A DNA stretch of 64,000 nt from Pirellulaceae bacterium (GTDB lineage: Bacteria > Planctomycetota > Planctomycetia > Pirellulales > Pirellulaceae). Under the pieces are notes generated by a model. The model had not been told where the DNA came from, searched no databases, and worked only from the letters and a program-made list of their open reading frames with translations. Each line of letters opens with the position of its first letter. Position 1 is the stretch's first letter. Positions 1 through 64,000 of this stretch are shown here, piece by piece. The translations under genes were made by a program, and so were the position numbers. Location: contig DATKBV010000479.1 of NCBI GenBank assembly GCA_035513655.1, positions 1,643-65,642 on the forward strand, written 5' to 3'.

Positions 1-3000
1 CCCGCTGCGCCGTTCACAATCAGCACGTCACTGGCCCCGGGACCGCCGCCGTTGACCGTGATGTTGCCATACGGCTGAGGTGCGTTGATCGTGAATGTGT
101 CGTCCCCTTCCAGGCCGTTGAGCACCAGGTTTCGGATATTTGCCTGACCGATGGCCAGACGAGTGCCGTGCGAATTGGCCAGCGTCACGCTGCCGGTGGT
201 CGCGGCGACCGTGAACGTATCGCTCTGGCCGGTTCCATCGACCACCAGCGTGTCGATACCCGTGCCGCCGTCGATGGTCAAGCTGGCCCCGGCGGCGACG
301 CCCAGAAGGTTCTGGTAGCTGATGCCCAACCGCGTGTTCACTCGCACGTGCCCTTCGTCGATGCCCGCCCCCGGCGTGTGGACGATGACGTCATCGTTGT
401 CCGTGCCGTTGATCGTCACACTGTCGTCAAAGCCTTCGCCATCGTAAATCAGCGTCTCGATGCCGCCGTTGCCGCCGATCAGCGGCGGGAAAAGCGGCGG
501 GCAGGGCGCGACAGGTACGAACGGATCGCTCTGGATCGTAATGTCGGCCACCAGACCGTTGGCATTGGTAATGACCATCGTCCCCGTGTCCGATCCCGTG
601 GGCGTATAGACCATGTCCACCTGCCCCGGCGTTTCGACCATCAGTACGTCACCTTGGTCGCCGGTGATGCCGGACGGCGGGCCGCCGATGATCGTCAGTT
701 CGACATTCCAGGCCGCCTGGTTGGGGGCCGGCGCGCGGATCACGATGTCGTCGTCGCCGGCGAGCGCGTCGATCACCAAGTGGGGAACATTGATGAACAG
801 GATCTCCGGACCCTCGTTGACCGATACCGTGAAGTCCTGGACGCCATCGGCACCCGGATGGGTGGAATCGTCGCGAGCGATCACGGTGATGTCGTCGTCG
901 GCGTTGGTTCCAAAGATAATGAACGGGCAGCCAGCCGGGGGTGGTGCCGGCTCGACGACGATCATTTCGATATGATCGAAGCTGACGATTCCCTCCGGGC
1001 CGCCTGTGGTCAAGAACCCACCTTCGTCTACTTGCGGTCCCGCGAAGAACGCGAAAGCGTTGGTTACGATCAACGTATCGCCCGGCAGCGTGCCGATCGG
1101 GTCGCCGCCATCGATGAAGATCGGAATCGAACCGCCGGTGACGGTGAAAGTGTCGCTCCCCTCCAAGCCATACACGGCCAGCGACTCGGCGTTGTCGTAG
1201 GTCACGATGCCGTTGTTCACCCCGTCATCGTTGTCGTCGATCGTCACGGTTTCGCCCGGACCATCCACGACGAACGCTTGCGGCAACGCATTGCCGACGA
1301 CGATCAGCGTATCCTGCCCATCGGCCAGGTCGATGTTGACCGCGTTACCGCCCGTGCCGGTGTAATGGACCAGCGGAGCGGTCAGCGGTTGCTGGGCCTG
1401 GCCATCCTGCTGGGCCGTCGAGCCGATCTGGACCGTCCCCGAACTGGCGCTGAACACGGTCACCGTCACGTCGTCGTCGTCGTCCGTGGCCACGACCGTC
1501 GGTCCACCTTGCCCGGCGTCCAGGTTGATGCGTTCGATGCCGCTGTAGGTAACCGGGAGGAAGCCGGCTTCGGTCACCGTCTGGGTGCCGAAATTGACCG
1601 TCACTAGTCCAATGCCGCTGCCGGTGAAGTTCAGCACGTCGCTGGCCGACGGATTGCCCCCATCCACGTAGATTTCCGTGAACGGATGGTTGCCCGGGAT
1701 ATTGAACTCGTCGTCGCCGTCCCCGCCGATCAGGTTCAGCAACGACACGCCCGGCGTGCTGATCAGCACCATTTGGAGATTTGTCAGGTCGGCCGAGAAC
1801 TCGGCCAGCTCGATCCCGCCCAACGCGTCGACCGTGAATCGGTCGCTGGCGTTGCCTGAGCGCGGCGTGATGGTCAACTCGTCAACGCGCCCCACGCCAG
1901 CCGGCTTGTCGAACGTCAACGTTCCGCCGCCGCCCAGCCCGAGGAAGTTCATCGGCACCAGCGCCACGCCGCCCAGCACCAGCGACTGGCGAATTTCCAC
2001 CCGGCCCGTGTCGAGCAGCGGACTATCGTCGCTGAGATAGATCAAGTGTTGCCCCGTCGGCGTCGTGACCGTCAGAGCGTCATTACCACCTTGACCATTG
2101 ATGGTCACATGCTCGGTGGTTGTGAAGTTGACCACCGGCGAGCCGGTGATGCTGACACTCCCCGCGTCGACGCCTGTCGGACGGAAATCGATGGCGTCTG
2201 CACCAGCCGTGCCGTTGACAATCACCGTGTCGTTGGCTGTCGGATCACCGCCATTGACCGTGATGCTGGTCAAGCCGGTGGGCGTCGTCGGGTTGTTCAG
2301 ATTGATTGTGTCATCGCCAGCCAATGCGTTGATCGTCAGCGTCGTCTTGTTCGAGAACTCGATTGTTTCGAAATTGTCGATCGCCACCAACCCGTTTGTC
2401 GCGACGCTGCCCTGCGTGTAGCTGATCGCATTGTCGGCATTCGTGGCGTTGACGGTCAGCGGGCCGGGGACCAAGTCAATCACCGGCTCCAGCCCCGTGA
2501 AACGGATGACTTGGCGATCCGCCAAAGTGGCCGCATTACCGTCCGTATCGTGGATCAAGATACCCGCATCATTCGTGGGACCCACGCTGTAGAACGCGTT
2601 CTGAGCCACACCGCCGGTGGTGACGAGCGTATCGTTACCGTCACCGCCATGGAAGACGATACCGTTGGCCAACACCACCAGTCCCGTGGCTTCGTTCACG
2701 GTCAACGTATCGTCGCCCGCTCGGCCTTGGACCTCCAGGCCCTCGATGTTGGAGAAATCCACCGGCACCCAATTGGGTCCACCCAGATCCAAGATCGCGC
2801 GAGTAACGCCACCACCCTGGTTGGTCACCACGATGTTGTCCGCACCGATGCTGCCGATCAAATGCAGCGAATCCGCCGGATTGCCGGCTCCGTTGATCCT
2901 GAGATTCCCCGCGACGTTATTAAACGCGGTGACCGAGATCGCCGGGCCACCCTGCGCGCGTCCGATGGTCGCCGACGACGGGCTGAGCGGTGTGAAGAGC

Positions 3001-50072: not shown

Positions 50073-53000
50073 ATGCTCAGGTGTATTAGAAAACAATTTG
50101 TCGTCATTCCAGCCTGGATCGCGTTCCTGCTGCTCGTAGGCAGTTTGAATGCAGCGGAGACGGATACCGCCGGTGACATCCTTCAAGCCACGGGAGTGAA
50201 AGGCGGCGTGATCGTTCACCTGGGTTGCGGCGACGGGAAGCTGACGGCGGCGCTGCGCGTGAGTGACCGTTACCAAGTGCATGGGCTCGCACGCGATCCC
50301 GCTGAAGTTGCCAAGGCACGTGGGCACGTCGCCGCCGGGGAGCATTATGGCGAGGTCTCGATTGATCGGTTGAGCGGCAATCGGCTTCCGTATGTCGACA
50401 ACTTGGTGAATCTTGTTGTGGCGGAGGACTTGGCGGATGTCACGGTGGACGAACTGTTGCGAGTGCTCGTCCCCAACGGTGTCGCTTACATCAAGAGCGA
50501 CGACGGCTGGAAAAAGACAGTGAAGCCGTGGCCTGACGACATTGATGAATGGACTCACTTCCTGCATGATGCTGGTGGTAATGCAGTGGCTCATGACGAT
50601 GTCGTTGGCCCTCCACGCCATCTGCAATGGCTGGGCAGCCCGCGTTGGTCGCGGCATCACGATCGCATGGCCAGCATGAGCGCGCTGGTTTCGGCCGGCG
50701 GTCGCCTCTTTTACATCATGGATGAAGGCTCGCGGATCTCCATTCAAATGCCGCCGAAGTGGATGCTCGTCGCCCGTGACGCTTTTAATGGGACGATTCT
50801 TTGGAAGCAGCCGATTCCTACTTGGCAAAGTCACTTGTGGCCATTGAAGAGCGGCCCGACGCAACTCGCCCGACGACTCGTTGCCGAAGGAGATCGAGTC
50901 TACGTGACGTTGGGGTTGCAGGCACCGGTCACGGTCATGGACGCAGCAACCGGCGAGATCATCCGCACCGTGGAAGGCAGCGATCCGACGGAGGAGTTGA
51001 TCGTCAGCAATGGCACCTTACTCGCGCTGGTGAATAAAGGCAGCTACGAGACGAAGGATTTTCTCCCTGCCTTCAATACCGGTGACCAGGCCCGTGTCCG
51101 CACCGACAAGCAATTCCATTGGAACGAACAAGCTCGCGAAGTCGTAGGCATCAACGGCGACAACGGCGATGTGTTGTGGCGTCGCGAGAGCGTGGTCGGT
51201 CCGCTCAGTTTGGCAGCCGATACCGAGCGAGTTTACTTCTACAACGGACAAGGGGTCGTCTGCTTGGATCGTGAAAGCGGGAAAGAGTTGTGGGCTTCCG
51301 AGCCAGCAGGTCGAGCTCAGGACTTTACCATGAACTTCGGGCCGAAGCTCGTCGTCCATGACAACGTCGTGTTGTTTGCGGGCGGTGACCGCAAGATGGT
51401 TGCCTTAGCCGCGGCTACCGGCAAGCAAATGTGGACGGCACCGCATGCTCGCGGAGGCTATCAGTCGCCGGAGGATCTACTCGTCGCCTCGGGGCTCGTT
51501 TGGTCAGCGCCGACGACCAGCGGCCGCGACTCCGGAATATGGACGGGCCGCGACCTGCTGACCGGTGAAGTGAAGAACGAATTTCCGCCGAATGTTGACA
51601 CCTATTGGTTCCACCATCGCTGCTATTTCGCCAAGGCAACCGACAAGTTCTTAATCCCGTCGCGAACAGGCATCGAGTTCGTCGACCACGAAAAACAGGA
51701 TTGGGACATTCACCATTGGGTGCGCGGCGGCTGTTTGTACGGTGTGATGCCATGCAATGGGTTGCTCTACGCACCACCGCACAATTGCGCGTGTTATCCC
51801 GAAGCGAAACTGTTCGGCATGAACGCACTCGCCCCGGCCAGCACCAACCGCGAGGTCCCGAAAGAAGTCTCCGACGAAGGCCGCCTGGAACGCGGCCCTG
51901 CCTACGACAACATCGTCGACGCGCCAGCCAAGGACACGGACTGGCCGACATATCGGCACGACGCCGCGCGTAGCGGATACCTCAAGCAAGATGTTCCGGC
52001 GACGCTAAAATCCGCCTGGAAAACAAACTTTGATAGCAAGCTGAGCAGCGTGGTCATCGCCAACGACAAGCTGTTCGTCGCCGAAGTCGATCGACATACC
52101 GTTCACGCGTTAAATGCGAACACGGGTGAGACGGTGTGGAGCTACACGGCTGGCGGGCGGGTTGACTCGCCCCCGACGATTCACAAGGGCCGGGCGATCT
52201 TCGGCGCGGCGGACGGCTGGATGTACTGCCTGCGAGCCAGCGATGGCGAACTTGCGTGGCGGTTCCGCGCGGCCCCGCGTGACGAGCGGCTGATGGCCTT
52301 CGAACAGCTGGAATCCGTGTGGCCGGTTCACGGCAGCGTGCTGGTCGAGAAGGATGTGGTTTACTTCATTGCGGGTCGATCTAACTTCCTGGACGGCGGC
52401 ATGCGCTTCTTCCGCGTTCACGCCGAGACGGGCCGCAAGATCTCCGAAGGGCTGATGGATGATCGCGATCCGCACACGGGCGAGGACTTGCAGAATCACA
52501 TCAAGGTATTGCAAATGCCCGTCGCGCTTCCCGACATTTTGTCCAGCGACAGCGTTTACGTTTACCTCCGCTCGCAACAGATTGACATGGAAGGGAATCG
52601 CCTGGAGATCGGTCCGCATTCGGCTGACTTTGCTGGTCAAGGCTCCGTACAGCGCGGTCCAACGCAACATTTATTTGCTCCGATGGGATTCTTGGATGAC
52701 ACCTGGTTTCATCGCGCGTACTGGGTCTATGGCCGCAGTTTCGCAGGTGGCCACGCGGGGTATTACCAAGCTGGTAAATACACACCGTCGGGGCGGTTGC
52801 TGGTTTTTGACGACGACAATGTTTATGGCTACGGACGCAAGCCTGAGTATTTAAAGTGGACCACCACGATCGAGCATCAGCTGTTTGCTTCGGGCAAAGA
52901 GCCGCCCCCGCAGGCGCGTAGTGAAGCGGACGAGCCTACCGGCGGAAGGCGAAACGCGCCGGCGGCCTCGACGATGATCCGCTTTGGCAAACCGGCCGGC

Positions 53001-53972
53001 ATCAATCCCACGGGAAAGCCACTAACGGTCGAAGCTTGGGTACAAGCCGATCGCCCCGACGGTGTCGTTGTGGCTCATGGAGGTCCGGCGGTCGGATATG
53101 CGCTCGTGCTGCAAGGCGGCAAGCCGCAGTTTCTGGTGCGGACGAAAGACAAAGTCACTGCGGCGAAGTCGAATGTTGAAACGATTGGCCGTTGGACGCA
53201 TCTGGTGGGAGTGTTGAGCGAAGACAAGCAAGTCAAGCTCTACATCAACGGCAGGTTGGTTGATAAAGTTCAGGCACCGAGCTTACTTCCATCCAATCCG
53301 GCACAAGGACTAGAGATCGGAGCCGATGACGCAGGTGCAGTCGGCGACTACCGAAGCCCGCTCGGCTTTACCGGCATGATCGACGAAGTCCGCATCTATC
53401 ACGCGGCTTTGAGCGATGACGAGATCGCGGACCACGCATCGAGCACCGATCGGACACCAACTGACGACCGACGATTGGTGCTCGCTTGCACGTTTGAAGG
53501 CGGGACGGCCGAGGACGTATCGGGGAACGGACACGACGGCGAACTTGATTCCCCGCAATCCGTGAAAGGGAAGTTCGGTCGGGCGATGCAGTTTACATTC
53601 CGGCAATCGCAAGCCGCTGGCTCGTTTGTCGAGTATCTCTGGACACAAGACGTGCCGCTAATGGTCCGTGCCATGGCGAAGGCGAATGACAAGCTCTTTA
53701 TTGCCGGACCACCCGATCTGATTGACGAAGAACAAACGTTTCAACGGACGATGGCTCGCGATCCGAATCTGGCGTCCCTGTTGGTTCAACAAGACGATGC
53801 CTTATCCGACGAAGCTGGGGGATTAATGCGAGTCGTCTCGGCCATCGACGGTAACACGTTGGCGGAGTACAAGCTCGACTCGCTGCCATCTTGGGATGGC
53901 ATGGCAGCGGCGAATGGAAAGCTATTCATGTCAACGACGGATGGCAATGTGATTTGTTACGCCGCCAACTGA
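50073..53972 (+). CDS. large secreted protein: SAM-methyltransferase-like N-domain, PQQ-like beta-propeller repeats, LamG/concanavalin-like domain
   Basis: After the signal peptide, VIVHLGCGDGKLTAAL is a class I MTase motif I. Repeated ...TGE.IW... propeller blades include NANTGETVWSY and ASDGELAWRF. The LamG-like segment runs LTVEAWVQADRPDGVV ... GMIDEVRIYHAALSDDEI. The product is 1299 aa. Confidence 0.75.
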   Translation: MLRCIRKQFVVIPAWIAFLLLVGSLNAAETDTAGDILQATGVKGGVIVHLGCGDGKLTAALRVSDRYQVHGLARDPAEVAKARGHVAAGEHYGEVSIDRLSGNRLPYVDNLVNLVVAEDLADVTVDELLRVLVPNGVAYIKSDDGWKKTVKPWPDDIDEWTHFLHDAGGNAVAHDDVVGPPRHLQWLGSPRWSRHHDRMASMSALVSAGGRLFYIMDEGSRISIQMPPKWMLVARDAFNGTILWKQPIPTWQSHLWPLKSGPTQLARRLVAEGDRVYVTLGLQAPVTVMDAATGEIIRTVEGSDPTEELIVSNGTLLALVNKGSYETKDFLPAFNTGDQARVRTDKQFHWNEQAREVVGINGDNGDVLWRRESVVGPLSLAADTERVYFYNGQGVVCLDRESGKELWASEPAGRAQDFTMNFGPKLVVHDNVVLFAGGDRKMVALAAATGKQMWTAPHARGGYQSPEDLLVASGLVWSAPTTSGRDSGIWTGRDLLTGEVKNEFPPNVDTYWFHHRCYFAKATDKFLIPSRTGIEFVDHEKQDWDIHHWVRGGCLYGVMPCNGLLYAPPHNCACYPEAKLFGMNALAPASTNREVPKEVSDEGRLERGPAYDNIVDAPAKDTDWPTYRHDAARSGYLKQDVPATLKSAWKTNFDSKLSSVVIANDKLFVAEVDRHTVHALNANTGETVWSYTAGGRVDSPPTIHKGRAIFGAADGWMYCLRASDGELAWRFRAAPRDERLMAFEQLESVWPVHGSVLVEKDVVYFIAGRSNFLDGGMRFFRVHAETGRKISEGLMDDRDPHTGEDLQNHIKVLQMPVALPDILSSDSVYVYLRSQQIDMEGNRLEIGPHSADFAGQGSVQRGPTQHLFAPMGFLDDTWFHRAYWVYGRSFAGGHAGYYQAGKYTPSGRLLVFDDDNVYGYGRKPEYLKWTTTIEHQLFASGKEPPPQARSEADEPTGGRRNAPAASTMIRFGKPAGINPTGKPLTVEAWVQADRPDGVVVAHGGPAVGYALVLQGGKPQFLVRTKDKVTAAKSNVETIGRWTHLVGVLSEDKQVKLYINGRLVDKVQAPSLLPSNPAQGLEIGADDAGAVGDYRSPLGFTGMIDEVRIYHAALSDDEIADHASSTDRTPTDDRRLVLACTFEGGTAEDVSGNGHDGELDSPQSVKGKFGRAMQFTFRQSQAAGSFVEYLWTQDVPLMVRAMAKANDKLFIAGPPDLIDEEQTFQRTMARDPNLASLLVQQDDALSDEAGGLMRVVSAIDGNTLAEYKLDSLPSWDGMAAANGKLFMSTTDGNVICYAAN

Positions 53973-53999: not shown

Positions 54000-54587
54000 T
54001 CATGATCCATTGTCGGGTGACTTGCCAGGTTCCGGCGGGGCATACCTTGGATCTTCCAATCCGAAGGCGTCGGCGACTCGATTGAAGAAAGCGAACAGCG
54101 CGGTGATGTAGACGGCTTCGGCAATCTGCGGATCGGTCCAGCCAGCGTCGCGCAATGTTTGCGTCTCATCGGCCGTAACGCGATAAGCCGTTTCCGTCAC
54201 GAGCTTGACGAAACGCAGCAGCGCGCGTTCGGCATTCGTGAACACGGCGTTGTCAATGTCGTGGTGTCGGAGGGCTGCGGTCTGTTCGTCCTCGGCTCCT
54301 TGCAACTGCAAGAAAAAAGCATGGGAGCCCAGTCAGTAAGGGCACTGGTTCAATGCCGAAACCAGGGTCGCGATCATCTCTTTCGTCCGCCGATCGAGAT
54401 GCCCGTCCGAGAAGTGCAACTCGTTGCTGAATTGGATCACGCGCTGCAGAAAATCCGGCCGCTGGCTGAAGCACTTCAAGATATCCGGCATCTGCGGTCG
54501 ATCGGGCCGAGTTTGTTTGTAGGCTTGATAGATCTCCGCGAGTTCGCCGCTCGCGTCGTCGTCTTCAATCCAGCGGATGAAGGGCAT
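54000..54587 (-). CDS. carboxymuconolactone decarboxylase (CMD)/AhpD-like peroxidase-related protein with in-frame TGA (candidate selenocysteine, codon 85)
   Basis: The two listed ORFs (54333..54653 and 54000..54311) are in one frame. Readthrough gives ...LVSALNQCPY-TGA-LGSHAFF..., the CxxCxxxH motif with TGA in place of the second Cys. AGGAG lies 7 nt upstream of ATG 54587. The product has 195 codons. Confidence 0.65.
54294..54329 (-). promoter_or_regulatory. candidate bacterial SECIS-like hairpin immediately downstream of the in-frame UGA
   Basis: The RNA is GGCUC CCAUGCUUUUUU CUUGC AGUU GCAAG GAGCC. The outer stem is 5 bp and the inner stem is 5 bp (extendable by U-G/U-A pairs). The 4-nt apical loop containing G-U starts 26 nt after UGA. 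Confidence 0.45.
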
Positions 54588-54642
54588 TGCCTTACTCCTG
54601 GTTGGTGATTCTCCGGTGAGGTACAACCTGAATCGCCCTCGA

Positions 54643-56064
54643 TTACTCTTCAATTCGCAGTCCGGCGGCCTCCGTGATGCGATCGAACGAGGCGCGATTG
54701 GTAGTGTAGCTAATCAACTGCACGACGTCCCGCGGTCCAGCCAACTTGACGGCCTCGTCGACTTCGGCATCCGTCAGCACAATTGGCGTGGCGGCAAGTT
54801 TCCGTGCGATTGTAAAGAGCGCTCGTTCCGTGGGCGTGAATTCGTCCCATGACCCGTCTAGTTGATAGATCTGGTCGTCGGTCCATCCCAACTGTTGCAG
54901 GCGTCGCTTCGCTTCACCCGCGGCGTACCACGCGCGATCTTGCCGCGCGATGATCCAGCTTGCCTGGGCCTTCAGCAACGGCGTGAGATCGCCGCGCTGT
55001 TCGGCCGAGCGAATGCTGCTGATTCGTCCGGGAGCACTAGTCGGGAAAGTGGCCAGCAGCCGGACCCATTGCGGCAGAGTACCGGCGGGAAAGTCTTCCG
55101 GCAGAACTTCCTTGGCTTGGCCTTCGTCGACCAACGGCAAACGTGGCGTCCGCTGGCGGGCGGCGGCCAGCGCCGCTTCGACTTCCTGCCGCGATTCCAA
55201 TGCCGGTCGACGAGATACGGTCATGCGAGTTGGTGCGCCAGTCTTTTCGTCAAGGAGCAACGGCGCGACGATGGTGACGACGCTCTTGTACTGCTGGGCG
55301 GTGGGCGTCAGATACGTTTCTGGAACGCGTAGGCGATCCGCGGTTTCGGCAACTTCCGCTCCGGTCGGCGTGCGTCGTCCAAAGCCGCCTCCATTCGCGG
55401 ACTGGGGAATGCCGGCTCCCTCCTTCCAACGATTGATCGAATTGTTTCCCGCCACGGACAAAATCATTTCGAGAATCTGACGATCCGTGTAATGCTTGCG
55501 CAATTGATCGATATCGGCGTCGTTCACGAGATGCGGCTCATACGTGATCTTGCGAGCGAAGGCAAAAGCTGTTTGCTCCTCGGGTGAGAACACCGACCAA
55601 TCGCAATCCAACGCCGCGATCTGGTCTTCGGTCAAACCCGCGCCTAGCAGCTTGGACTCTTGGTGCCCCAAGCAGTATTGGCAATTGTTGGTCCGCGAAA
55701 CGATCCAAAACAATTCCGTTTTGAAGGCATAGGTCAGCGACATCTCCGGATCGTTCTCGCGGCCGAACCCACCGGAACTGGACCGACCACCGGTTCGCTG
55801 TTCGCCATCGCGGGACGGCATGTAATGGTAACGCAAGCGACTTTCGTAGCTGGACGCGCGCTCACCGAGATTCGCTTTATCTTCCTCGGTCAGTTCGGGC
55901 AGCGGGATACGTGGCTTGCGAGCCTTCATATCCTCGAGGTACTGTTTCATCTCGGGGCGTGTTAGAGGGACTGGACGGGGCGTGGTTTCCGAATCGACGG
56001 CCGTAACGGTTCCGGGCGACGCGGTCACGACACCTAAAAAGAGGGCGGTCAATAAACGCTTCAT
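54643..56064 (-). CDS. secreted protein with two CMD/AhpD-like domains (first with intact CxxC, second degenerate)
   Basis: The signal peptide is MKRLLTALFLGVVTASPG. Domain 1 has SRTNNCQYCLGHQ. Domain 2 has the equivalent region ARQDRAWYAAGEA without cysteines. The product is 473 aa. Confidence 0.75.
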   Translation of the reverse strand: MKRLLTALFLGVVTASPGTVTAVDSETTPRPVPLTRPEMKQYLEDMKARKPRIPLPELTEEDKANLGERASSYESRLRYHYMPSRDGEQRTGGRSSSGGFGRENDPEMSLTYAFKTELFWIVSRTNNCQYCLGHQESKLLGAGLTEDQIAALDCDWSVFSPEEQTAFAFARKITYEPHLVNDADIDQLRKHYTDRQILEMILSVAGNNSINRWKEGAGIPQSANGGGFGRRTPTGAEVAETADRLRVPETYLTPTAQQYKSVVTIVAPLLLDEKTGAPTRMTVSRRPALESRQEVEAALAAARQRTPRLPLVDEGQAKEVLPEDFPAGTLPQWVRLLATFPTSAPGRISSIRSAEQRGDLTPLLKAQASWIIARQDRAWYAAGEAKRRLQQLGWTDDQIYQLDGSWDEFTPTERALFTIARKLAATPIVLTDAEVDEAVKLAGPRDVVQLISYTTNRASFDRITEAAGLRIEE

Positions 56065-56125
56065 GGTATAAATCCTCGTGGTAAAAGAAAATTGTCGATC
56101 AAGGCTTCGATGTTTGCTTGACGAC

Positions 56126-56563
56126 TTACCCTTCCGTTTCTTCTAAAAACACCGTGATCTTTGGACTCGTGCCGACGGTGTATTGCACCTTGTGCTTGGA
56201 GCGCACTCCCGCACCGTCCTCCAACTCCAATACGACGGGGACATGCAAGTTCGACCCATCGCTTGTAGACGGGTCGAGCACTTGATAACTCACCAGCCGC
56301 TGGCCCGCCTTCCATTGGGATTCGACGACGATGATCGATGGAGAACCCTGTTGAAGACTTTCTTGTGTCTGGCCTTGCTTCCAGGCGTCGAGCACGGTGG
56401 ACAGCGAACTTTTAGCAACGTCTTCATTGAGAGCCGGCGCGCCTCCCCTGGAGCCGCAACCCAGGCCGAGGCTTATGATCAGCAGTGCCATCGCCGCGGT
56501 CCCATCCCGCGGCGCGGCGGCGAATGCACGCCGCGCCGCGACTGAACTCGAATCTAAACTCAT
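56126..56563 (-). CDS. small lipoprotein of unknown function downstream of the DUF1559 gene
   Basis: GGAGG lies 8 nt upstream of ATG 56563. The lipobox is LIISLGLG-C. The product has 145 codons. The longer listed ORF start overlaps the upstream gene. Confidence 0.55.
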   Translation of the reverse strand: MSLDSSSVAARRAFAAAPRDGTAAMALLIISLGLGCGSRGGAPALNEDVAKSSLSTVLDAWKQGQTQESLQQGSPSIIVVESQWKAGQRLVSYQVLDPSTSDGSNLHVPVVLELEDGAGVRSKHKVQYTVGTSPKITVFLEETEG

Positions 56564-56588
56564 CGTATGACCTCCAAATGACTTCTGG

Positions 56589-57542
56589 TTAATAATCGCT
56601 GAGCGGTTCACCGCCATCGCGCGAACCCAGCGCTCGCCACGTGGGCACGTTAATCGTTTCCGCGACAAGCCGTACGGATCCATCGCACAAGGCCACGTTG
56701 GCCCCACCGGGGTGGTAACTGCCGGCCGTCGTTGCAATTCGGCCTGGTGGGTACATACAGCTCCGGCCATTCGGCGGCGTCACGTGGTAATAGCGCGTGG
56801 TCGAATGGTAGGAGTACAACCACGGAGCACCCACGTTCGAGTAACCCTGTTTGGTCAGGTCCAGGACGTTCACCGCGCGGCACTGTTCGTAGGCTTCGTC
56901 CGGGGTCGCCGGATAGGTTCCCGGTCGAAACGTGTCGGACTCCGGCGTGCTCATGCCGTTACTGCCGTCACCCTTGATCTTCTCCGAAATGCAAGCTGTG
57001 TTGCTTGTGCCGTCACGAATGTCGGCAAATTTGATCACGCGATCCGGCACAAAAACGCCGTTGCACGGCGGCATGCTGAAGTTGGAGTTAGATGGATTCG
57101 TCGACGGATTGCCGAACAGGATATTGAAACCGCTATTGCCATAGTAGTTATTCCGTGCGCCTAGGGTGGTCGGCAGCCTGTCCGAATCCGAAGGGCAGAG
57201 GAACGCCGGGACCGGAGTGTTCATCACCGGCAGGTTCAGGGCATGGTTGTAACTCACCGAAAAGTCAATTTGGTCATACAACGCGTTCTGCTCGATGTAC
57301 GGCAACATGCGAGCCAAGTACGAGATACTTCCGGATCTCGTGCCATAGGGAAAACACTTGTAGGTGTCGTGGTAATTGTGCAAGCCGAGTGCAATCTGCT
57401 TCATGTTATTGGAGCATTCGGAACGCCGCGCCGCTTCACGGGCGGCTTGGACCGCGGGCAGCAACAGGGCTACCAAGATCCCGATAATTGCGATGACAAC
57501 CAGTAGCTCAACAAGCGTAAAGGCCAACCGAGAACGTTTCAT
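56589..57542 (-). CDS. DUF1559 (H-X9-DG) protein with type IV pilin-like N-terminal methylation/cleavage motif
   Basis: [59 protein letters not shown] matches the family N-terminus. The C-terminus [15 protein letters not shown] is the H-X9-DG signature. Confidence 0.92.
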
Positions 57543-57709
57543 GACTAGATTCCTTTTCTGTTTTCAGGAAAAATTACAGAGACAAAAACAAGATTGCGAA
57601 TAGAGACGTCAATCCATGCTGCGTAGTACAGACGCGCAGCTTGAATCAGGCAACGAGTGGTCGTTGCTGAACAAACGAAAGAACAAGACACCGATCTTGC
57701 AACCGGGAA

Positions 57710-59995
57710 TCAGCCCAGGCGCGGCGGATGAAAGATACCGCCTTCGCCGTCGCGTGGTTTGTCCGCGATTGGTGGTGTCATGAAGAATAGAAAGGGGCGA
57801 GCATCTCGAACGTCAGGATGGAATACCAAGCCATGTTCGCGGTCGTGTCGAGACGATACTGGGTCGGCGGGTGGTGCGTGGTGACGAACGGGAGCTTGCG
57901 AACAATTAGGACCGTTACAAGGTCGACGAGATGGCGGCAGTGAACTCTCGCGACGCGTCGACGAGGAGGTCGAATGGTCTCCAAACGACAAGTAGTCACC
58001 GCAGGTTGGATGACTGATCGAAACAAGGAAACTTCCGGCGTCTGGTGCCACACCTGAACCAGCAACTGCTTCCAGTTGGGCTCTGTCTGCTGGATCCACG
58101 TGTGACACGGGAGCGACTGGCTCGTTCGATTGCTCGATTTCGTACGCTTGATCGGCTTGGACATCGTGGACCTCCTGCTGGGAACCGTCGGGCCAACGGA
58201 TGATGACCCGACGAACCCGATCGGATTCTCCCAGACCGATGGTGACGGGCAATTCAACCTGTGAAATGTAGCTGCGCGTGGGCATAACCTGACGACGCAG
58301 CACTCGATCGGCCAATTCAACTTCAATCCAAGCACCGATTGCGTCACGATTGCATTGCGTGCCGATCAATTTGAAACGGAGCCAATGGTGCTGAAGTTCC
58401 TGATCGTTGCGCAGCAGTCGAGGGGCTTGTCCCGACGCGGTGATGATGATGTCCAAGTCGCCGTCACCGTCGATGTCGGCGAAACTCGCTCCCCGGCCGA
58501 TCATCGGTTTCACCAGGTCATCACCGCATTGGTCCACGGTGACTGGCAGAAACTCGGTATCCTGCTCGCGGCCACAGTTCCAGAACAATTGTGGTGGTTG
58601 TGCATAATGTTGGCTCGGTTGCACGCGATTGATGTCTTCCTCCAAATGCCCGTTCGCCGCAAACAAATCCAGACGGCCGTCCAGATCGTAGTCAAAGAAG
58701 TACACACCAAACGTCAATTCCAAACGCGTGTTGGGCCCCAGTCCGGTCGAGATCGCCTCGTCCATGAATTGCATCTGGTCGCCATACGAAACGTAGAGCG
58801 CGGTCATCTCATTGGCGAAATTGCCAATCGTGACGCCGAACGCGTCATTGTTGCGGAACGGGGCCGCGTCGATCCCCATCGCCCCGCGGGCGTTGCCGTT
58901 CATGTCGAACGCCACGCCCGCCAACGTGCCGATCTCGTGGAACTTGCCCTCACCTGCGTTGTGAAACAGAAAGTTTTGCACCGTATCGTTGGCGACAACG
59001 ATGTCGATCCGTCCGTCGCTATCGAAGTCGGCGAACGTCGCTCCCAACGACTTAGCCATCGGCACGCCCGTCGCCGCATTACGCATGTGCAGGCCAGCGG
59101 ATTCGGCAACTTCCGTGAACTTCCCGCCTCCGTCATTGCGGAACAAGTAGGGGAATGCGCCTTCGAAGTTTTGCGGGCGGCCGTAGGCGCGTCCCCCACC
59201 CGTTAATTGAAACCCTTGCGACTCGTCGTATTCGCGTGACCATTTGACATAGTTGCAGACAAACAAATCCAAATCGCCATCGTTGTCGTAATCCAACCAA
59301 CCGCAACTCGTGCTCCAGTCATTGTCCAGACCTCCGACACCTGCGGCCGCGGTGACATCGCGAAACTTCCCTTCCCCTTCGTTGTGAAACAGGCGATTCC
59401 CTCCAACCGCCGACAAATAAACATCGACGCGGCCGTCATTGTCGTAGTCGCCAACGGCGACACCCATGCCATAAAACGCAATGTCCAGACCGGATCCTGG
59501 CGTGGCGTCGGAAAACTTGCCCGTGCCGTCATTGCGATAGAGCGCCATGGTCGGTTGAGGCCCCGCGTCGGCCGCCGGTTCGTCCCACGGCCAACGTTGC
59601 GAGTTAACAAACAACAGGTCCTGGTGGCCATCGCCGTCGAAGTCGAGAAACGCGCAGCCGCCCCCCATCGTTTCGGGCAGCAGCTTCCGCCCACGCGCGC
59701 CATTTTCATGCTTGAATTGGATGCCAGCCGCTTCGGTAACATCGGTAAAGTGAGCCACAGGCGCGGTAACTTTCGGCACGTCGCGCTGCTGCGCTTCGGC
59801 CAGCACTGTCTTTCTCAATTCGGGCGGCGGTTCGGGGCGTGTGATCACATAGAACACTGTGCCAATTACGGACGCAATGGCCGCGAACAGAATCAACGAC
59901 CATCGTAACGCCACGCCAATCACGGCGTCGTCGCGTTCTTCGGTATCGTCATCGACGTCGGGTCGTTGATCCCGCGCGGATCGTTTCTCGCTCAT
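57710..59995 (-). CDS. CRTAC1/ASPIC-UnbV family FG-GAP (VCBS) repeat protein with an extra about 160-aa C-terminal tail carrying the TCGDYL / PCxGPxC / PPR module
   Basis: It has an N-terminal TM anchor. The FG-GAP repeats are FLDFDGDGHQDLLFVN, VGDYDNDGRVDVYL, WLDYDNDGDLDLFVCNY, FADFDSDGRIDIVVAND, FFDYDLDGRLDLFAANG and FADIDGDGDLDIIIT. The UnbV_ASPIC-like part is NRDAIGAWIEV...IIRWPDG. The tail (57710-58006) is homologous to 63098..63526. Confidence 0.88.
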   Translation of the reverse strand: MSEKRSARDQRPDVDDDTEERDDAVIGVALRWSLILFAAIASVIGTVFYVITRPEPPPELRKTVLAEAQQRDVPKVTAPVAHFTDVTEAAGIQFKHENGARGRKLLPETMGGGCAFLDFDGDGHQDLLFVNSQRWPWDEPAADAGPQPTMALYRNDGTGKFSDATPGSGLDIAFYGMGVAVGDYDNDGRVDVYLSAVGGNRLFHNEGEGKFRDVTAAAGVGGLDNDWSTSCGWLDYDNDGDLDLFVCNYVKWSREYDESQGFQLTGGGRAYGRPQNFEGAFPYLFRNDGGGKFTEVAESAGLHMRNAATGVPMAKSLGATFADFDSDGRIDIVVANDTVQNFLFHNAGEGKFHEIGTLAGVAFDMNGNARGAMGIDAAPFRNNDAFGVTIGNFANEMTALYVSYGDQMQFMDEAISTGLGPNTRLELTFGVYFFDYDLDGRLDLFAANGHLEEDINRVQPSQHYAQPPQLFWNCGREQDTEFLPVTVDQCGDDLVKPMIGRGASFADIDGDGDLDIIITASGQAPRLLRNDQELQHHWLRFKLIGTQCNRDAIGAWIEVELADRVLRRQVMPTRSYISQVELPVTIGLGESDRVRRVIIRWPDGSQQEVHDVQADQAYEIEQSNEPVAPVSHVDPADRAQLEAVAGSGVAPDAGSFLVSISHPTCGDYLSFGDHSTSSSTRRESSLPPSRRPCNGPNCSQAPVRHHAPPADPVSSRHDREHGLVFHPDVRDARPFLFFMTPPIADKPRDGEGGIFHPPRLG

Positions 59996-62892
59996 AATCC
60001 ACCTCCCACCGTTTCCGTTTTCGGTTCCTCGGCCGCGGCGGTCGACAATCCCGGTGCATCCGTCCGCTGCAATGGATACTTCACCACCGCCTCGGCGGCG
60101 TGGTTGGCCGCGGGATAGCGCTCTCGGGCCAATCGCACGGCTCGGCCCTGCGCATTGTCATCGGGTTTGTAGCGGCGATGGAGTTCCTCGTGCTTTTTCG
60201 AATTAGCATCGTCACCCAACTCGGCATAGAGCAACTGGAGGTTATGGTGTGCCGTGACATCTTCGGAGTCGATGACGAGTGTCTTTTGAAAACTTGTCAC
60301 CGCCGCTTCCCATTGCCGCCGAGCTTCCTCCGGACGCTCTTGCCGCGCCCGTAGCCGGCCGAGATCGAATTGCGTTTGCCCCAGCAAGTTAATGACTTCG
60401 AAGTCCAAGCTGAAATCGAAGTCGCGCTTCGTCAAGTCGGGCGTGCGGTCTTCTAACACGCTGCGCAGGTTGATGATGGCTTCTTCGAGATGCCCCTGTT
60501 GGCGGTTCACTACGGCACTCAACCACGCCCAGGTCCACCGCGGATAGCCTTCCTCGTCGCTGTATGCGGCGGCGCGTTGCAAGGCCTCGACAGCTTCGTG
60601 CAACCGGCCTTCGGTGTTGTAAACGCGAGCCAGGTTCAGCGGGCCATCCCAGCGATTCAGTTTCTCCACTTCCGTGAACGCTTCGGTGGCCTGCCGCAGT
60701 TCGGCTTTTCCCTTTAACAGCAGACCGATGCCATAGTCGTTCCAGCGCTGCCAGACGGGAATGTCTCGATCGGGATTCGTCACTTCGGCCGCGACGCCAG
60801 CAATCGGAAATGTCACTCGATCAACCGCCAGAGTCGTGATCGGCAAGTCGTTGTGATACGGCTTCCCGGGCTCGTGGCCGCGAATGGTTTGGCCGAGTTT
60901 TTCATTGGCCTGTGCCACAAAATCCATGTACCGCTGATCGAACTTGCGATACTGCAACTTCAGTTCGACCGTGACGGGAGCATTCACATCGGGCGGCAAC
61001 TGCAATTCGTAATGCACCGTCTGTCCCGCGCCGGGCGGAATCTGATGGTTATAGAGTGGCGTAAAGATGTCTTGCGGATTGCGGCGATCGATACGGTTGC
61101 CATCCTTGTCGAGCATGAACACATTGATAAAGTGCGACCAGGGATCGACTTCGTTGTGCTTGGCCGGGTCCACCGCCCCGTTGCGGCCAATCACTCGATT
61201 GCCGGACGTTACGGCGACATCCAGCCAGACTTCGTTGGAATCCACGGTGCCTTGCGTGAACAAGTGCCCTAGCTTCATGGTGCGGACGACTGTCTCTAAC
61301 AGATACTTAGCACCCGGCTGGAGCGTCGGAACTTGAGGCCGCAACGGGGCGATCAGATTTCCGTCGACTTCGCCTCCCTCGCGCACACCAAAGATGTCCA
61401 CGCGCATGGTCCCTTCCAAGAACTTTTGATGGGCGGCAATGATCTCAGGCCGTTCGCGCAGCCAGGCGATACCCGTATTCGCCGATGGGAAAAGGTGGTC
61501 GTGAATGCTCAATTCCTTCGCGCCTCCAAAGTGCTTCGCTCCAAAATCATCGGAAGCCGCCAGCGGCATGTGGCAACCGTTGCAATTGGTCTGCGCCTGG
61601 GGAGGGTAGTAAAAGCTGCGCGCCCCGTGGCCAGAAACGCCGCTCAGCAGATACGGGTTGTAGTGATCCTGGCCACGCAAGAAGTCCTTGTAGTGATTCA
61701 ACGCCAGCGGCAAGTGGACTTTGTGACAGCTCGAACAGAACTCGGCCGTCTTGTGGAATGGTTTAAGGAAAGTCTTCTTGTGAAATTCCGGCTTGGCCTT
61801 CACCAGCTGATTGTTGATCCACTGCAACACCGAGTTGTCGCTAAAGGCAAACGGGTAATGCAACGGTTCTTCGATCGTGTAGTCGGCGTTCCCCACCGTG
61901 CTGTTGACGTGCGTGATGGCGTGGCACACCGTACAAGTGATGCCGGACTGCGACGTGGGATGATTGGTCGTGTCGAACTTGGGATCGTCGAACGCGCCGC
62001 TGAAGAACGGGACGGGATCGTGACAACCGGCGCACCACCGTGAGGCCTGGACATTACCGTCTCGTTTCAACGCCACTTCGCGTGTCTCCATGACGCTGGC
62101 CAGGTACGGCGGGTTGTTGAACGAGCTGAAGCGATGCACGCTGTCGCTCCATCCGGCATGTACGTCGGCATGGCATTTTTGGCAGTACTGGTCATTCATC
62201 ATCGTCTCGGCGGGTATGAATTGTCCCGTAGTCGTCCGCGCCAAGGACGGCTCGAAATACTTCACTCCCGATTCGGGGCCTTGGGCATACCATTGTCGCG
62301 GGTCTTGGGTATGCATCCCGACCATCATGAGCACGATAATGCCAACGAATCCGGCATAGCTGAGCCCGATTCGCCACTTGATTCGGGGACCGCTCAGCCG
62401 ATGAAGCCAGTACAACCAGGCGACGATTAGAGGAACAATCACATGCAGCCAATACACCGTATTCCGAGCCAGCGGCTGTCTCAAATCAAAGCCGGCGATC
62501 CGCATCAGTAGGACGCCGCTGATTAAAACGACGACGCTTGCGCCAAGCAGAACGTAACCGATTCGCACGGCACGGCGATTGCGGCGGTTGCGTGCGGCGA
62601 GCATGTGAGACACACCGAAGACAACGAACGGCACGATGAGAACTAGCCCCAACACCAAGTGTGCCAGGAACATGTACTGATAGAAATAGTTTTGATAAGT
62701 CCGGTTTTGAGCCCACTCGAAAGCGGTGATGCTGGCAAGATAAGCGGAATTTGCGCCCAGCAACGCGACGAGGGCAAAGATGAAGTACAACAGCTTGCGA
62801 AGACGCGGGCTCACGGCCCGCACATATTTCTTCTTCAGCGCACCCTGCACGGAGAGTGGCGCAGGATCGACGGGCGACGGCGATTCTGACAT
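59992..62892 (-). CDS. membrane-anchored pentaheme c-type cytochrome with C-terminal TPR-like region
   Basis: There are four to five N-terminal TM helices and five CxxCH motifs (CQKCH, CAGCH, CTVCH, CSSCH, CNGCH). The C-terminal third is helical-repeat-like (LNLARVYNTEGRLHEAVEALQRAAAY...). Its stop overlaps the CRTAC1 start (ATGA). Confidence 0.85.
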   Translation of the reverse strand: MSESPSPVDPAPLSVQGALKKKYVRAVSPRLRKLLYFIFALVALLGANSAYLASITAFEWAQNRTYQNYFYQYMFLAHLVLGLVLIVPFVVFGVSHMLAARNRRNRRAVRIGYVLLGASVVVLISGVLLMRIAGFDLRQPLARNTVYWLHVIVPLIVAWLYWLHRLSGPRIKWRIGLSYAGFVGIIVLMMVGMHTQDPRQWYAQGPESGVKYFEPSLARTTTGQFIPAETMMNDQYCQKCHADVHAGWSDSVHRFSSFNNPPYLASVMETREVALKRDGNVQASRWCAGCHDPVPFFSGAFDDPKFDTTNHPTSQSGITCTVCHAITHVNSTVGNADYTIEEPLHYPFAFSDNSVLQWINNQLVKAKPEFHKKTFLKPFHKTAEFCSSCHKVHLPLALNHYKDFLRGQDHYNPYLLSGVSGHGARSFYYPPQAQTNCNGCHMPLAASDDFGAKHFGGAKELSIHDHLFPSANTGIAWLRERPEIIAAHQKFLEGTMRVDIFGVREGGEVDGNLIAPLRPQVPTLQPGAKYLLETVVRTMKLGHLFTQGTVDSNEVWLDVAVTSGNRVIGRNGAVDPAKHNEVDPWSHFINVFMLDKDGNRIDRRNPQDIFTPLYNHQIPPGAGQTVHYELQLPPDVNAPVTVELKLQYRKFDQRYMDFVAQANEKLGQTIRGHEPGKPYHNDLPITTLAVDRVTFPIAGVAAEVTNPDRDIPVWQRWNDYGIGLLLKGKAELRQATEAFTEVEKLNRWDGPLNLARVYNTEGRLHEAVEALQRAAAYSDEEGYPRWTWAWLSAVVNRQQGHLEEAIINLRSVLEDRTPDLTKRDFDFSLDFEVINLLGQTQFDLGRLRARQERPEEARRQWEAAVTSFQKTLVIDSEDVTAHHNLQLLYAELGDDANSKKHEELHRRYKPDDNAQGRAVRLARERYPAANHAAEAVVKYPLQRTDAPGLSTAAAEEPKTETVGGGL

Positions 62893-63097
62893 AAAACGTA
62901 CTCCACGGTGAACGGTTGCCTTAGGACTCGCGCACGGACGACGCTTGATCGACGAATCTCAGTGTGCAAGTCCATGAGGCTGGACGCGATTGCGGCAGGT
63001 CATCTGACAGGGCAATCACGATCGAATGTCCGCGCACGTCCTGCGAGTTTAAACGCAAAGTTGGTTCGTGCGCGAAGTGGACGAAAAAGGTCCATGC

Positions 63098-63526
63098 TTA
63101 GGAGCGTGGAGGGCGCTCGACTCGGAATGGAAATCCCGGAGCAACTCGCGCCGGAGTTTCAGCGACGGAAGACCAGAACGGGGATGCGAGGTTGAAACCG
63201 TTCAGTCGTTGAACGTGAGCCCGTTGATCTTGACTTGGGCCGCTCTCAATTGGCAAGGGCGGGCTAGGAATGCCAGGCGATTGACGACACTGCGGGCCGT
63301 CACAGGGCGAGCCGAGCGGTTTCTGCGATGCTTCCGTGGTGTACTCGTCGTTGGACTGACCCATCGTGTGACCGACGCCACCGAAGTCGAGGTAGTCACC
63401 ACAAGTAGCCTGCACGTTTTCCGTCGAGATCGCACCGACAAACAAAGCCGCCACAACGCGCAGGCCCGCGCGCCAAAAGGTGCGTGTGCCAAGAGCGGGC
63501 GTGCTGTGAGAAAACCACATCAACAT
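63098..63526 (-). CDS. small secreted Pro/Ser-rich protein with TCGDYL-x-FG-x-H, PCxGPxCxQxP and C-terminal RPPR motifs (uncharacterised family)
   Basis: From ATG 63526 the sequence is MLMWFSHSTPALGTRTFWRAGLRVVAALFVGAISTENVQA (signal-like), then TCGDYLDFGGVGH...PCDGPQCRQSP...FRVERPPRS. The upstream part of the listed ORF runs through a repeat hairpin. It is homologous to the CRTAC1 tail. Confidence 0.55.
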   Translation of the reverse strand: MLMWFSHSTPALGTRTFWRAGLRVVAALFVGAISTENVQATCGDYLDFGGVGHTMGQSNDEYTTEASQKPLGSPCDGPQCRQSPGIPSPPLPIESGPSQDQRAHVQRLNGFNLASPFWSSVAETPARVAPGFPFRVERPPRS

Positions 63527-63622
63527 ATTGTTGTAAGACGACGATTTGGATACGGGATCTTCGATGAGGACTACGGTCGCAAATATAAATGAGCGATGCG
63601 AATCTGTCAAACTGCGGGTAGT

Positions 63623-63719
63623 GATACCATTTGTAGGTTGGACGCCTCGTCCGACCATGAAACCGTTTGAACACTCGGACGGACGAGGCGTCCATCCTAC
63701 GGAGTCTTCAAACGGTATC
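63623..63719. repeat. long imperfect GC-rich hairpin (REP-like) upstream of the small secreted protein gene
   Basis: gtaggttggacgcctcgtccg ... cggacgaggcgtccatcctac includes a 14-bp perfect core. The outer gatacc/ggtatc also pairs. Confidence 0.7.
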
Positions 63720-64000
63720 ACTTTCAATGTGCCAAGCTATTTCCACTTTTTTTCAAAAATTCTCGGAATTCCGACCCGGTTTTGCCTCCGTTTTTCAATA
63801 AGTATTACAGAGACCTGATTGGGCTACCAACTTGGTGTTTGCTTTGTATCAGAAACAGCGAATGACCAGGGCAGAGCGGCACGCAGGGGGCAATGCAGGG
63901 GTAGGTGCCGTAGGTCATTCGCTGCTTTATACCTTGAGGGCATCCGCGCGATGCCGGGCGAGGCGTCTAGTGCTTTGTGACAGCTTGATTTTAGGATTAG

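Follow-up and report, generated by a model that had tools for sequence, protein, structure and literature searches.

A large family of small exported three-cysteine proteins heads two types of planctomycete gene cassette and may act as cis-acting leader peptides

In a 64,000-nucleotide (nt) stretch of a contig from a Pirellulaceae metagenome-assembled genome (MAG; the whole stretch is termed the window hereafter), a cysteine-containing module is present twice, once as a small exported protein (gene A) and once as the C-terminal tail of a CRTAC1 protein (copy B). Both copies belong to a family of exported Planctomycetota proteins of ~130 amino acids (aa) that, by our profile and domain searches, is large, unannotated and undescribed, and whose members stand at the head of two different gene cassettes. 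By analogy with CutF and CruR we propose, with a probability of about 0.5, that these proteins are cis-acting regulatory leader peptides which may sense metal or redox state via three Cys residues. A cis-acting leader fits the data better because one family serves two cassettes, because a 59-residue ruler is fixed although no fold is predicted, and because the end of the open reading frame (ORF) can pair with the start of the downstream gene. The minus-strand genes of the window were covered over positions 54000..64000 (Table 1).

That the module is truly repeated, as a sequence-only reading of the window had claimed, is supported by three approaches in agreement. BLASTP aligns gene A and the CRTAC1 tail with E=9e-7 over the half spanning TCGDYL to PCxGPxC, and in a six-frame motif scan of the window CGDY, PCxGPxC and [FE][HR]PPR co-occur at just two sites. 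A family hidden Markov model (HMM), built from ~155 homologues with the window copies left out, matches two of 905 stop-to-stop segments of the window, i.e. gene A and copy B (E-values in Table 1), the next best segment having E=0.31. The match of copy B spans HMM positions 22-134, i.e. the mature part alone, and all three family motifs are retained. Moreover, the tail continues the reading frame of CRTAC1 over 122 codons without stop or frameshift, so the objection that it might be out of frame fails.

A nine-sequence profile was run against 1.84 billion cluster representatives (50% identity clusters) and matched 1,841 of them at E<=1e-3, of which 149 were at E<=1e-10. The best 150 of the 1,841 comprise 101-239 aa, mostly 120-160 aa, and are nearly all free-standing; where source names are given, they are Pirellulaceae, Lacipirellulaceae, Rhodopirellula, Stieleria and Planctomycetota. 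When either copy was used in a word-indexed search, few relatives came up, every one free-standing, small and bearing a signal peptide. Homologues thus exist elsewhere and, according to profile search and alignments, keep the Cys and PP positions. Both copies and 129 members were scanned against Pfam and NCBIfam, which gave no relevant model (Pfam at E<=0.01 for the window copies), in line with the earlier statement that the motif cannot be assigned to a named family.

The members analysed, i.e. the top-scoring profile matches, share a signature of three parts. They start with a Sec signal peptide and A-x-A/[ST]-C-G-D-[YW]-[LVI] (the slash marks the cleavage site), continue after a variable loop of 24-55 aa with P-C-x-G-P-x-C-[RQ]-x-A-P-x-x-P-x-P-P-x-P, and end with G-[FY]-P-x-R-[ILV]-[ED]-[HR]-P-P-R-[AV] followed by the stop codon, with just 1-3 residues between PP and the end in most members. 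Across the family C-G-D, C-x-G-P-x-C and the PP near the C-terminus are invariant; the context of this PP is [ED][HR]PPR or FHPPR rather than RAPP or PPP. As to the residues regarded as invariant from the two window copies, the three Cys are kept across homologues, whereas the His residues and the PFxxF-like matches vary. Signal peptides were called by sequence rules, not by SignalP, with a hydrophobic core in 239/241 members and small residues at -3/-1 before [ST]C in 237/241.

Other readings of these motifs were rejected. Haem binding does not apply, as the motif is CxxxxC, no CxxCH is present and a His follows Cys2 in just ~27% of the members. A lipobox of the form [LVI][ASTVI][GAS]C is ruled out because the residue three positions before Cys1 is polar and variable (Q, R, E, H, D, N), and A-x-A-[ST]-C suits signal peptidase I (SPase I). 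Finally, export via Tat was dismissed since the RR of the n-region is not conserved, e.g. in copy A and its orthologues. One member of 200 aa (P0092) carries a tandem duplication of PCxGPNCS (...SPCLGPNCSHAP...APCQGPNCSGGP...) in which the second copy seems to have kept its spacing to PP; this duplication may be informative on which Cys pair is used.

Cys3 and the C-terminal PP are separated by exactly 59 residues in 147/242 members, by 59±1 in 219/242 and by 57-60 in 232/242 (standard deviation 1.8), and a hand count gives exactly 59 for both A and B. In the same proteins the Cys1-to-Cys2 distance, which serves as control, ranges from 24 to 55 (standard deviation 5.6), i.e. the family tolerates insertions and deletions elsewhere because this second distance varies widely. 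Members recovered by a DNA pattern on the Cys motifs alone have a PP spacing of 56-61. Between Cys3 and PP, positions +13..+50 contain almost no information, and as R and a further 0-10 residues come after PP, the distance of the motif to the free C-terminus is variable. AlphaFold2, run with a multiple sequence alignment of 106 sequences, gave a predicted local distance difference test score (pLDDT) of 67 and a predicted template modelling score (pTM) of 0.30. As the model is confident for the signal-peptide helix alone, no globular fold is available to explain the fixed length, and a folded domain was rejected as its cause.

At every locus with downstream DNA to inspect, the small gene opens the cassette, shares its strand and lies 46-565 nt upstream of either a cytochrome-TPR gene (14 loci) or a DUF1559 gene (11 loci). 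In cassette type (i) a pentaheme-TPR cytochrome with five transmembrane (TM) helices (~965 aa) and then CRTAC1 (607-647 aa) follow, as found for gene A, L002, L003, L006 (Stieleria varia), L007, L008, L011, L016, L017, L020, L027 (Rhodopirellula sp. SM50), L028, L029 and the minus-strand member of L025. Thus, the expected synteny with multiheme-TPR cytochrome and CRTAC1 genes holds for many members. Cassette type (ii) consists of a DUF1559 protein (~320 aa) and, contig permitting, a ~130-aa lipoprotein-like protein and an AhpD-like CxxC protein of 420-470 aa; it comprises the loci of copy B, L001, L004, L009, L010, L012, L013, L014, L023, L025 and L026 (P0136), and loosely L019, the leader before DUF1559 being free-standing in L001, L004, L009, L010, L012-L014, L023 and L026. 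The C-terminal subtype tends to follow the cassette type, with [ED][HR]PPR mostly before the cytochrome and FHPPR mostly before DUF1559. A strict link was rejected, as FHPPR is found ahead of the cytochrome in L011, L016 and L020, and EHPPR ahead of DUF1559 in L026. The two cassette types are repeatedly adjacent: they are arranged in tandem in the window, CRTAC1-like genes lie beside DUF1559 cassettes in L009 and L019, and L025 contains divergent members (80..535, minus strand, and 831..1268, plus strand) facing cytochrome-TPR/CRTAC1 and DUF1559, respectively, an arrangement also present in parent contigs of P0136. Both types, repeatedly co-localised (window, L009, L011, L019, L025), may form one larger system.

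The ~25 cassettes contain no maturase, protease or transporter gene. This argues against the idea that the proteins are precursors of secreted or processed peptides, either signalling peptides or similar to ribosomally synthesised and post-translationally modified peptides (RiPPs), with the Cys residues becoming cross-links. Small, exported, Cys-containing and Pro-rich proteins with conserved termini would suit such a role, but RiPP precursors normally have no Sec signal peptide and the fixed distance to a stop-adjacent C-terminal PP would be left unexplained, so that we regard this as very improbable.

Alternatively, the small protein might be a trans-acting periplasmic component, e.g. a three-Cys metal/redox carrier or a "strap" that docks on downstream-encoded proteins, namely on the TPR domain or the CRTAC1 propeller in one cassette and on the DUF1559 pilin-like or the AhpD-like protein in the other. 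Such a role would agree with the conservation of three motif islands at the protein level, mature N-terminus included, with the odd number of invariant Cys in an exported protein, with the redox proteins in both cassettes (the pentaheme cytochrome; the AhpD-like protein with CQYC), with the strictly conserved gene order and with the natural fusion to CRTAC1, as fusions often mark interacting partners. However, one family serves two unrelated cassettes, onto which the C-terminal subtype maps imperfectly (L011, L016, L020, L026), no fold is predicted for such a component, and a flexible linker should allow changes in length, whereas spacings longer as well as shorter than 59±1 are excluded. Furthermore, the variable distance from PPR to the C-terminus is hard to reconcile with binding by a TPR clamp or a PDZ domain, the CRTAC1 fusion is missing in a relative with 93% identity, and a third-position GC content (GC3) of 0.48-0.60 vs 0.68-0.70 in neighbouring genes suggests that these are not highly expressed structural genes. 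A trans-acting component, which comes close to the idea of the sequence-only reading, is therefore the main rival but, in our view, unlikely. The role as tether or substrate for the cytochrome and CRTAC1 considered in the sequence-only reading is probably wrong, as it leaves unexplained the DUF1559 cassettes, the 59-residue ruler, the missing fold and the pairing between ORF end and downstream start.

This pairing is predicted at the RNA level in cassettes of the cytochrome type. In the window, the fold of ORF end and spacer has z=-3.0, and the codons of E-R-P-P-R (CCUCCACG, 63105..63112) pair with CGUGGAG (62901..62907), which contains the Shine-Dalgarno (SD)-like GGAG 9-12 nt upstream of the cytochrome ATG. 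In minimum free energy (MFE) folds, 7/11 cytochrome-type loci exhibit 12-22 bp between the last 45 nt (ORF end/stop region) and positions -30..+3 of the cytochrome gene, and pairings equivalent to that of gene A are also found in L006, L007, L016 and L017. MFE-based shuffles resulted in p-values of 0.01-0.11 per locus and in a Fisher's combined p of ~0.005 without the non-independent L002. The paired sequences vary by locus, i.e. CCUCCAC (Pro-Pro codons) pairs with GUGGAG in gene A, L002 and L028, CUAGUGUG with CACACUAG in L006, and CCUAGUGAGA with UCUCACUAGG in L007. In L016 (1283..1431) the 99-nt spacer together with the PPR-stop codons and the start region makes up a near-perfect 148-nt hairpin (MFE -93.8 kcal/mol, z=-11.4). 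In L006-L007 and L027 (Stieleria/Rhodopirellula) CUAGGRA is located 12-15 nt upstream of the cytochrome AUG and is complementary to the stop context (Y)CCUAG; in these loci the pairing appears to involve the amber stop codon itself. Gene A is preceded by a sigma-70-like promoter (Table 1), the spacer between it and the cytochrome gene contains no promoter-like site, and an Rfam scan of the spacers returned nothing.

Based on these findings we propose that the ribosome would pause while decoding the C-terminal ...[HR]PPR. At this pause CxxxxC would be 59 residues away from the peptidyl-transferase centre, roughly the length of the ribosomal tunnel plus the SecYEG channel, and would just emerge on the periplasmic side next to Cys1, which is at mature position 2 and would be kept nearby as the cleavage site is held at the translocon. 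Metal binding by the three Cys residues (Cu(I)-like, with three thiolates) or disulfide formation would then alter the pulling force on the nascent chain and thus the length of the pause. The paused ribosome would occupy the last codons and the stop codon; in cassettes of the cytochrome type these codons are predicted to pair with the downstream initiation region, which a pause would therefore expose. For the DUF1559 type, a link via transcription termination (CruR/Rho) or mRNA stability is more likely, unless the genes have promoters of their own. The earlier suggestion of a metal or redox site is hence kept for a signal that may be sensed, but not for a cofactor site of a stable protein.

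Precedents exist for several elements of this scheme. CutF is a Sec-exported protein with a CxxxC motif, and its Cu-dependent stall at a Pro-rich motif near the C-terminus opens the stem-loop in which the SD sequence of cutO is hidden (PMC9973294; bioRxiv 10.1101/2025.02.05.636593). Like CutF from Rhodobacter capsulatus (cutFOG), the family described here is first in the operon, has, in 7 of the 11 cytochrome-type loci, a predicted stem-loop that ties the ORF end to the next ribosome binding site, and has a product that is (as predicted here) unstructured/unstable (PMC9973294; bioRxiv 10.1101/2025.02.05.636593), and like the DUF2946 group it consists of small exported proteins with an SPase I Sec signal (120-160 aa). 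Nevertheless, no sequence relationship to CutF/DUF2946 was detected, 0/129 members matching PF11162 at E<=1. In contrast to the CxxxC of CutF, the family has CxxxxC and a third invariant Cys at the mature N-terminus, its C-terminal motif is [HR]PPR instead of PPP, and its spacers are mostly 150-350 nt long, whereas CutF-like spacers mostly have <100 nt. It occurs in the phylum Planctomycetota and precedes cytochrome and CRTAC1 or DUF1559 genes, not copper-detoxification genes, and, unlike in the DUF2946 group, the cassettes it heads have no known role in metal homeostasis.

In CruR (Bordetella pertussis Bp2923) CXXC and RAPP are 45±2 residues apart in >2,000 homologues, this spacing is functionally required, the diproline arrest motif is located three residues before the stop codon, and regulation across an intergenic region of 162 nt occurs via Rho termination (PMC9426467). 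The family shares with CruR the Cys motif, the diproline near the stop, a spacing kept within 1-2 residues, the long intergenic region and the position at the operon head (PMC9426467). It differs in the spacing (59 vs 45) and in [HR]PPR vs RAPP, and the two are not homologous by HMM. By analogy, the greater spacing would agree with a signal that is sensed past the membrane instead of directly outside the ribosome. A further difference is that CruR does not depend on its signal peptide and acts via Rho termination. Small secretory proteins encoded upstream of metal/thiol-redox genes are enriched in RAPP-like motifs close to their C-termini (PMC12992588). An export signal, a spacer of >30 aa and a Pro motif near the stop are features in common with SecM, VemP, MifM, ApdA/ApdP, the RQH family and uA_LPPP of Planctomycetota (PMC7897499, PMC10987492, PMC12992588), as is the location upstream of the regulated gene. 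In contrast to these substrates monitoring Sec/YidC, the downstream genes are not sec or yidC, extra Cys motifs are present, there is no R-x-P-P register, and arrest is predicted.

Several observations weigh against a cis-acting leader. Pausing at [HR]PPR is a prediction, the basic residue being located directly before PP, unlike in RxPP, where R is three positions before the last P. A trans-acting protein would likewise account for the strong conservation of the mature N-terminus and of the Pro-rich stretch behind CxxxxC, and the downstream genes lack a known link to metal homeostasis. The MFE folds of L008, L011, L020 and L027 lack the pairing, and its statistics are modest. The DUF1559-type spacers (167-565 nt, C≥G) as a class show no enrichment of end-to-start pairing, and those of L001 and L004, a close pair, are essentially unalignable; a conserved RNA element in these spacers was rejected on both grounds. 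As they are long and unconserved, the downstream gene could own a promoter. Finally, top-hit sampling could inflate the regularity of the spacing, a bias opposed by the Cys1-Cys2 control and by the loci derived from the DNA pattern. Extending the leader-peptide proposal to the whole phylum, the family may represent transmembrane nascent-chain sensors of the Planctomycetota in which periplasmic metal or thiol redox state would set the expression of both cassettes, i.e. an independent invention similar to CutF/CruR that would use a new arrest motif; we put this forward tentatively, at somewhat less than even odds.

The origin of copy B can be traced by comparison with L005, which stems from an independent metagenome. 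L005 is 93% identical to window positions 60061..58077, after which the alignment jumps to 54630..54016, i.e. window positions 54631..58076 (3,446 nt) correspond to 54 unrelated nt in L005 (1986..2039). The L005 CRTAC1 stops at 647 aa, and after 71 nt comes an AhpD-like gene equivalent to window positions 54000..54587. Over its first 632 residues the window CRTAC1 is 95.6% identical to this orthologue, and its C-terminal extension of 122 residues is missing from all seven complete CRTAC1 relatives examined. Residues 1 to ~640 of the 761-aa ORF are standard for the CRTAC1/ASPIC-UnbV family (Pfam FG-GAP_3, E=1.3e-37; UnbV_ASPIC, E=2e-20 at residues 552-618), from which the ORF differs by the added tail. 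Judged by its sequence, this tail is the product of a different gene and foreign to the CRTAC1 family, in agreement with the earlier proposal of a gene fusion.

The block 54631..58076 corresponds to a cassette of type (ii) with its leader gene cut 24 codons upstream of TCGDYL. The maximum Kyte-Doolittle value of these 24 codons is 1.3 vs 2.3-2.75 in true signal peptides of the family, and no signal peptide for copy B was found in other frames or from an in-frame GTG. The natural unfused order is preserved in L011 (CRTAC1, stop, 48 nt, small gene with signal peptide), a search with the tail returned free-standing small proteins exclusively, and the relatives of copy B are separate ORFs bearing their own signal peptide. 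Read against these loci, copy B is the decapitated leader of a DUF1559 cassette that was joined in frame to CRTAC1. As copy B heads the next cassette (DUF1559, lipoprotein-like, AhpD-like), the two copies do not bracket the cytochrome-CRTAC1 pair, in contrast to what had been supposed. The fusion is a lineage-specific insertion/deletion (indel), since a 93%-identical relative is devoid of the whole block and its CRTAC1 ends at 647 aa; complete CRTAC1 proteins elsewhere have 607-647 aa, and the view of the fusion as a lasting architecture had to be abandoned. Two Pirellulaceae populations of ~93% identity thus differ in the presence or absence of a complete DUF1559 cassette, the 3.45-kb block. 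Nothing in the block significantly matches the 54 nt unique to L005, and the junctions share nothing beyond the 7-mer TTCAGGT; the event may be an insertion in the window lineage or a deletion in L005.

As the contig derives from a MAG and the junction lies inside a gene, the fusion might be suspected to be an assembly chimera. This is hardly credible because directly behind the block the window falls back into exact synteny with L005, an independent contig, which is unexpected of a chimeric join; in addition, the block is a complete canonical DUF1559 cassette, also present in L009 and L012, and no long repeat is found at the junctions. By contrast, it is possible, although somewhat less likely than not, that the tail of copy B is a functionless by-product of the recent indel, i.e. 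an in-frame decapitated leader gene that is as yet undecayed. Its restriction to this lineage, the exclusively free-standing search hits, the lost signal peptide, the GC3 of 0.48 (the lowest in the region) and the unfused precursor arrangement in L011 are in favour, but the motifs and the 59-residue spacing are intact, the 122 codons are free of stops and frameshifts, the DUF1559 cassette behind the tail is intact, and the N-terminal anchor of CRTAC1 could substitute for the lost signal peptide. Copy B might thus still work as a leader, as this anchor would bring the chain to the translocon. The fusion is known from one sequence, on which selection vs decay is not measurable.

Table 1. Features of the locus; positions refer to the window unless given in aa
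Feature	Position	Strand	Remarks
Sigma-70-like promoter TTGACA-17-TATATT	63582..63610	-	11/12 matches; ~55 nt upstream of small gene A
Small gene A	63098..63526	-	family member; family HMM E=1.5e-36; NCBI start at 63520 (P0001)
Gene A, Sec signal peptide	aa 1-40	-	cleavage VQA/TC
Gene A, motifs	CGDYL 63389..63403; PCDGPQC 63287..63307; ERPPR 63104..63118; stop 63098..63100	-	
Intergenic region gene A/cytochrome, 205 nt	62893..63097	-	predicted fold pairs ORF end with cytochrome start region
Pentaheme c-type cytochrome, C-terminal TPR, membrane-anchored	59992..62892	-	966 aa, 5 TM helices, 5 CxxCH
CRTAC1 ORF including tail	57710..59995	-	761 aa
CRTAC1 proper: N-terminal TM anchor, FG-GAP repeats, UnbV_ASPIC	58077..59995	-	collinear with 647-aa L005 orthologue until 58077
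Copy B, 5'-truncated family member fused in frame to CRTAC1	57710..58076	-	family HMM E=1.6e-18
Copy B, motifs	TCGDYL 57989..58006; PCNGPNC 57902..57922; FHPPR 57719..57733; stop 57710..57712	-	
Block of 3.45 kb (copy B, DUF1559, lipoprotein-like and AhpD-like 473-aa genes)	54631..58076	-	alignment to L005
Intergenic region copy B/DUF1559 gene, T-rich, 167 nt	57543..57709	-	weak terminator-like hairpin 57691..57706
DUF1559/H-X9-DG pseudopilin-like gene	56589..57542	-	prepilin N-methylation motif
Small lipoprotein-like gene, signal ...LGLGC	56126..56565	-	homologue equally placed in L009, L014
AhpD/CMD-like secreted protein, 473 aa, single CQYC	54643..56064	-	last gene of DUF1559 cassette; also in L009, L010, L012

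The proteins of the locus are deposited at NCBI as HUG70302-4, the small one being labelled hypothetical protein and the 761-aa CRTAC1 ORF corresponding to HUG70303.1. GC3 is 0.48 in copy B (57713..58075) and 0.60 in gene A (63101..63400), compared with 0.68-0.70 in the neighbouring genes, which suggests differing codon-usage constraints or a different history of both family copies. Antisense upstream of gene A (63638..63698, plus strand) lies a sub-threshold Rfam match to RNA-OUT (25 bits vs a gathering cutoff of 41, E=0.3), most likely due to chance. On the opposite strand and immediately upstream (50073..53972, plus) a secreted protein of 1,299 aa is encoded, which by eye looks PQQ/beta-propeller-like with a LamG-like C-terminal part.

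Beyond the block, two adjacent "CMD" ORFs (54000..54587, minus strand) make up one AhpD-like gene with an in-frame TGA at 54333..54335. This TGA falls exactly at the second Cys of CxxC (NQCPY-TGA-LGSH, i.e. CxxUxxxH), reading through it gives a full-length match to TIGR01926 above cutoff (E=5e-30), and a GGCUCC...GGAGCC hairpin comes after it. The split gene is also present in the 93%-identical L005 (2082..2651). On this pattern, the gene likely encodes a selenoprotein of the AhpD family that is annotated as two fragments.

Planctomycetes contain dozens to hundreds of genes for DUF1559 pseudopilins and many CRTAC1/multiheme-cytochrome pairs, and we know of no function or mode of regulation established for either group. 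A single unannotated family of small proteins heads both types of cassette, and its similarity in architecture to CutF/CruR provides a testable regulatory hypothesis and a likely cue, i.e. periplasmic metal or thiol redox state, for these genes. As to annotation, the family merits a model of its own, the 761-aa "CRTAC1" should be flagged as chimeric fusion and the two AhpD fragments should be merged to give a single selenoprotein candidate. If the leader-peptide proposal is true, [HR]PPR would widen the repertoire of arrest sequences, and the path length from the ribosome to the periplasm would have a natural measure in the spacing of 59 residues, as compared to 45 in CruR, which senses in the cytoplasm. 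Taken together, the family would then provide a first way into the function of the DUF1559 and CRTAC1 cassettes of planctomycetes.

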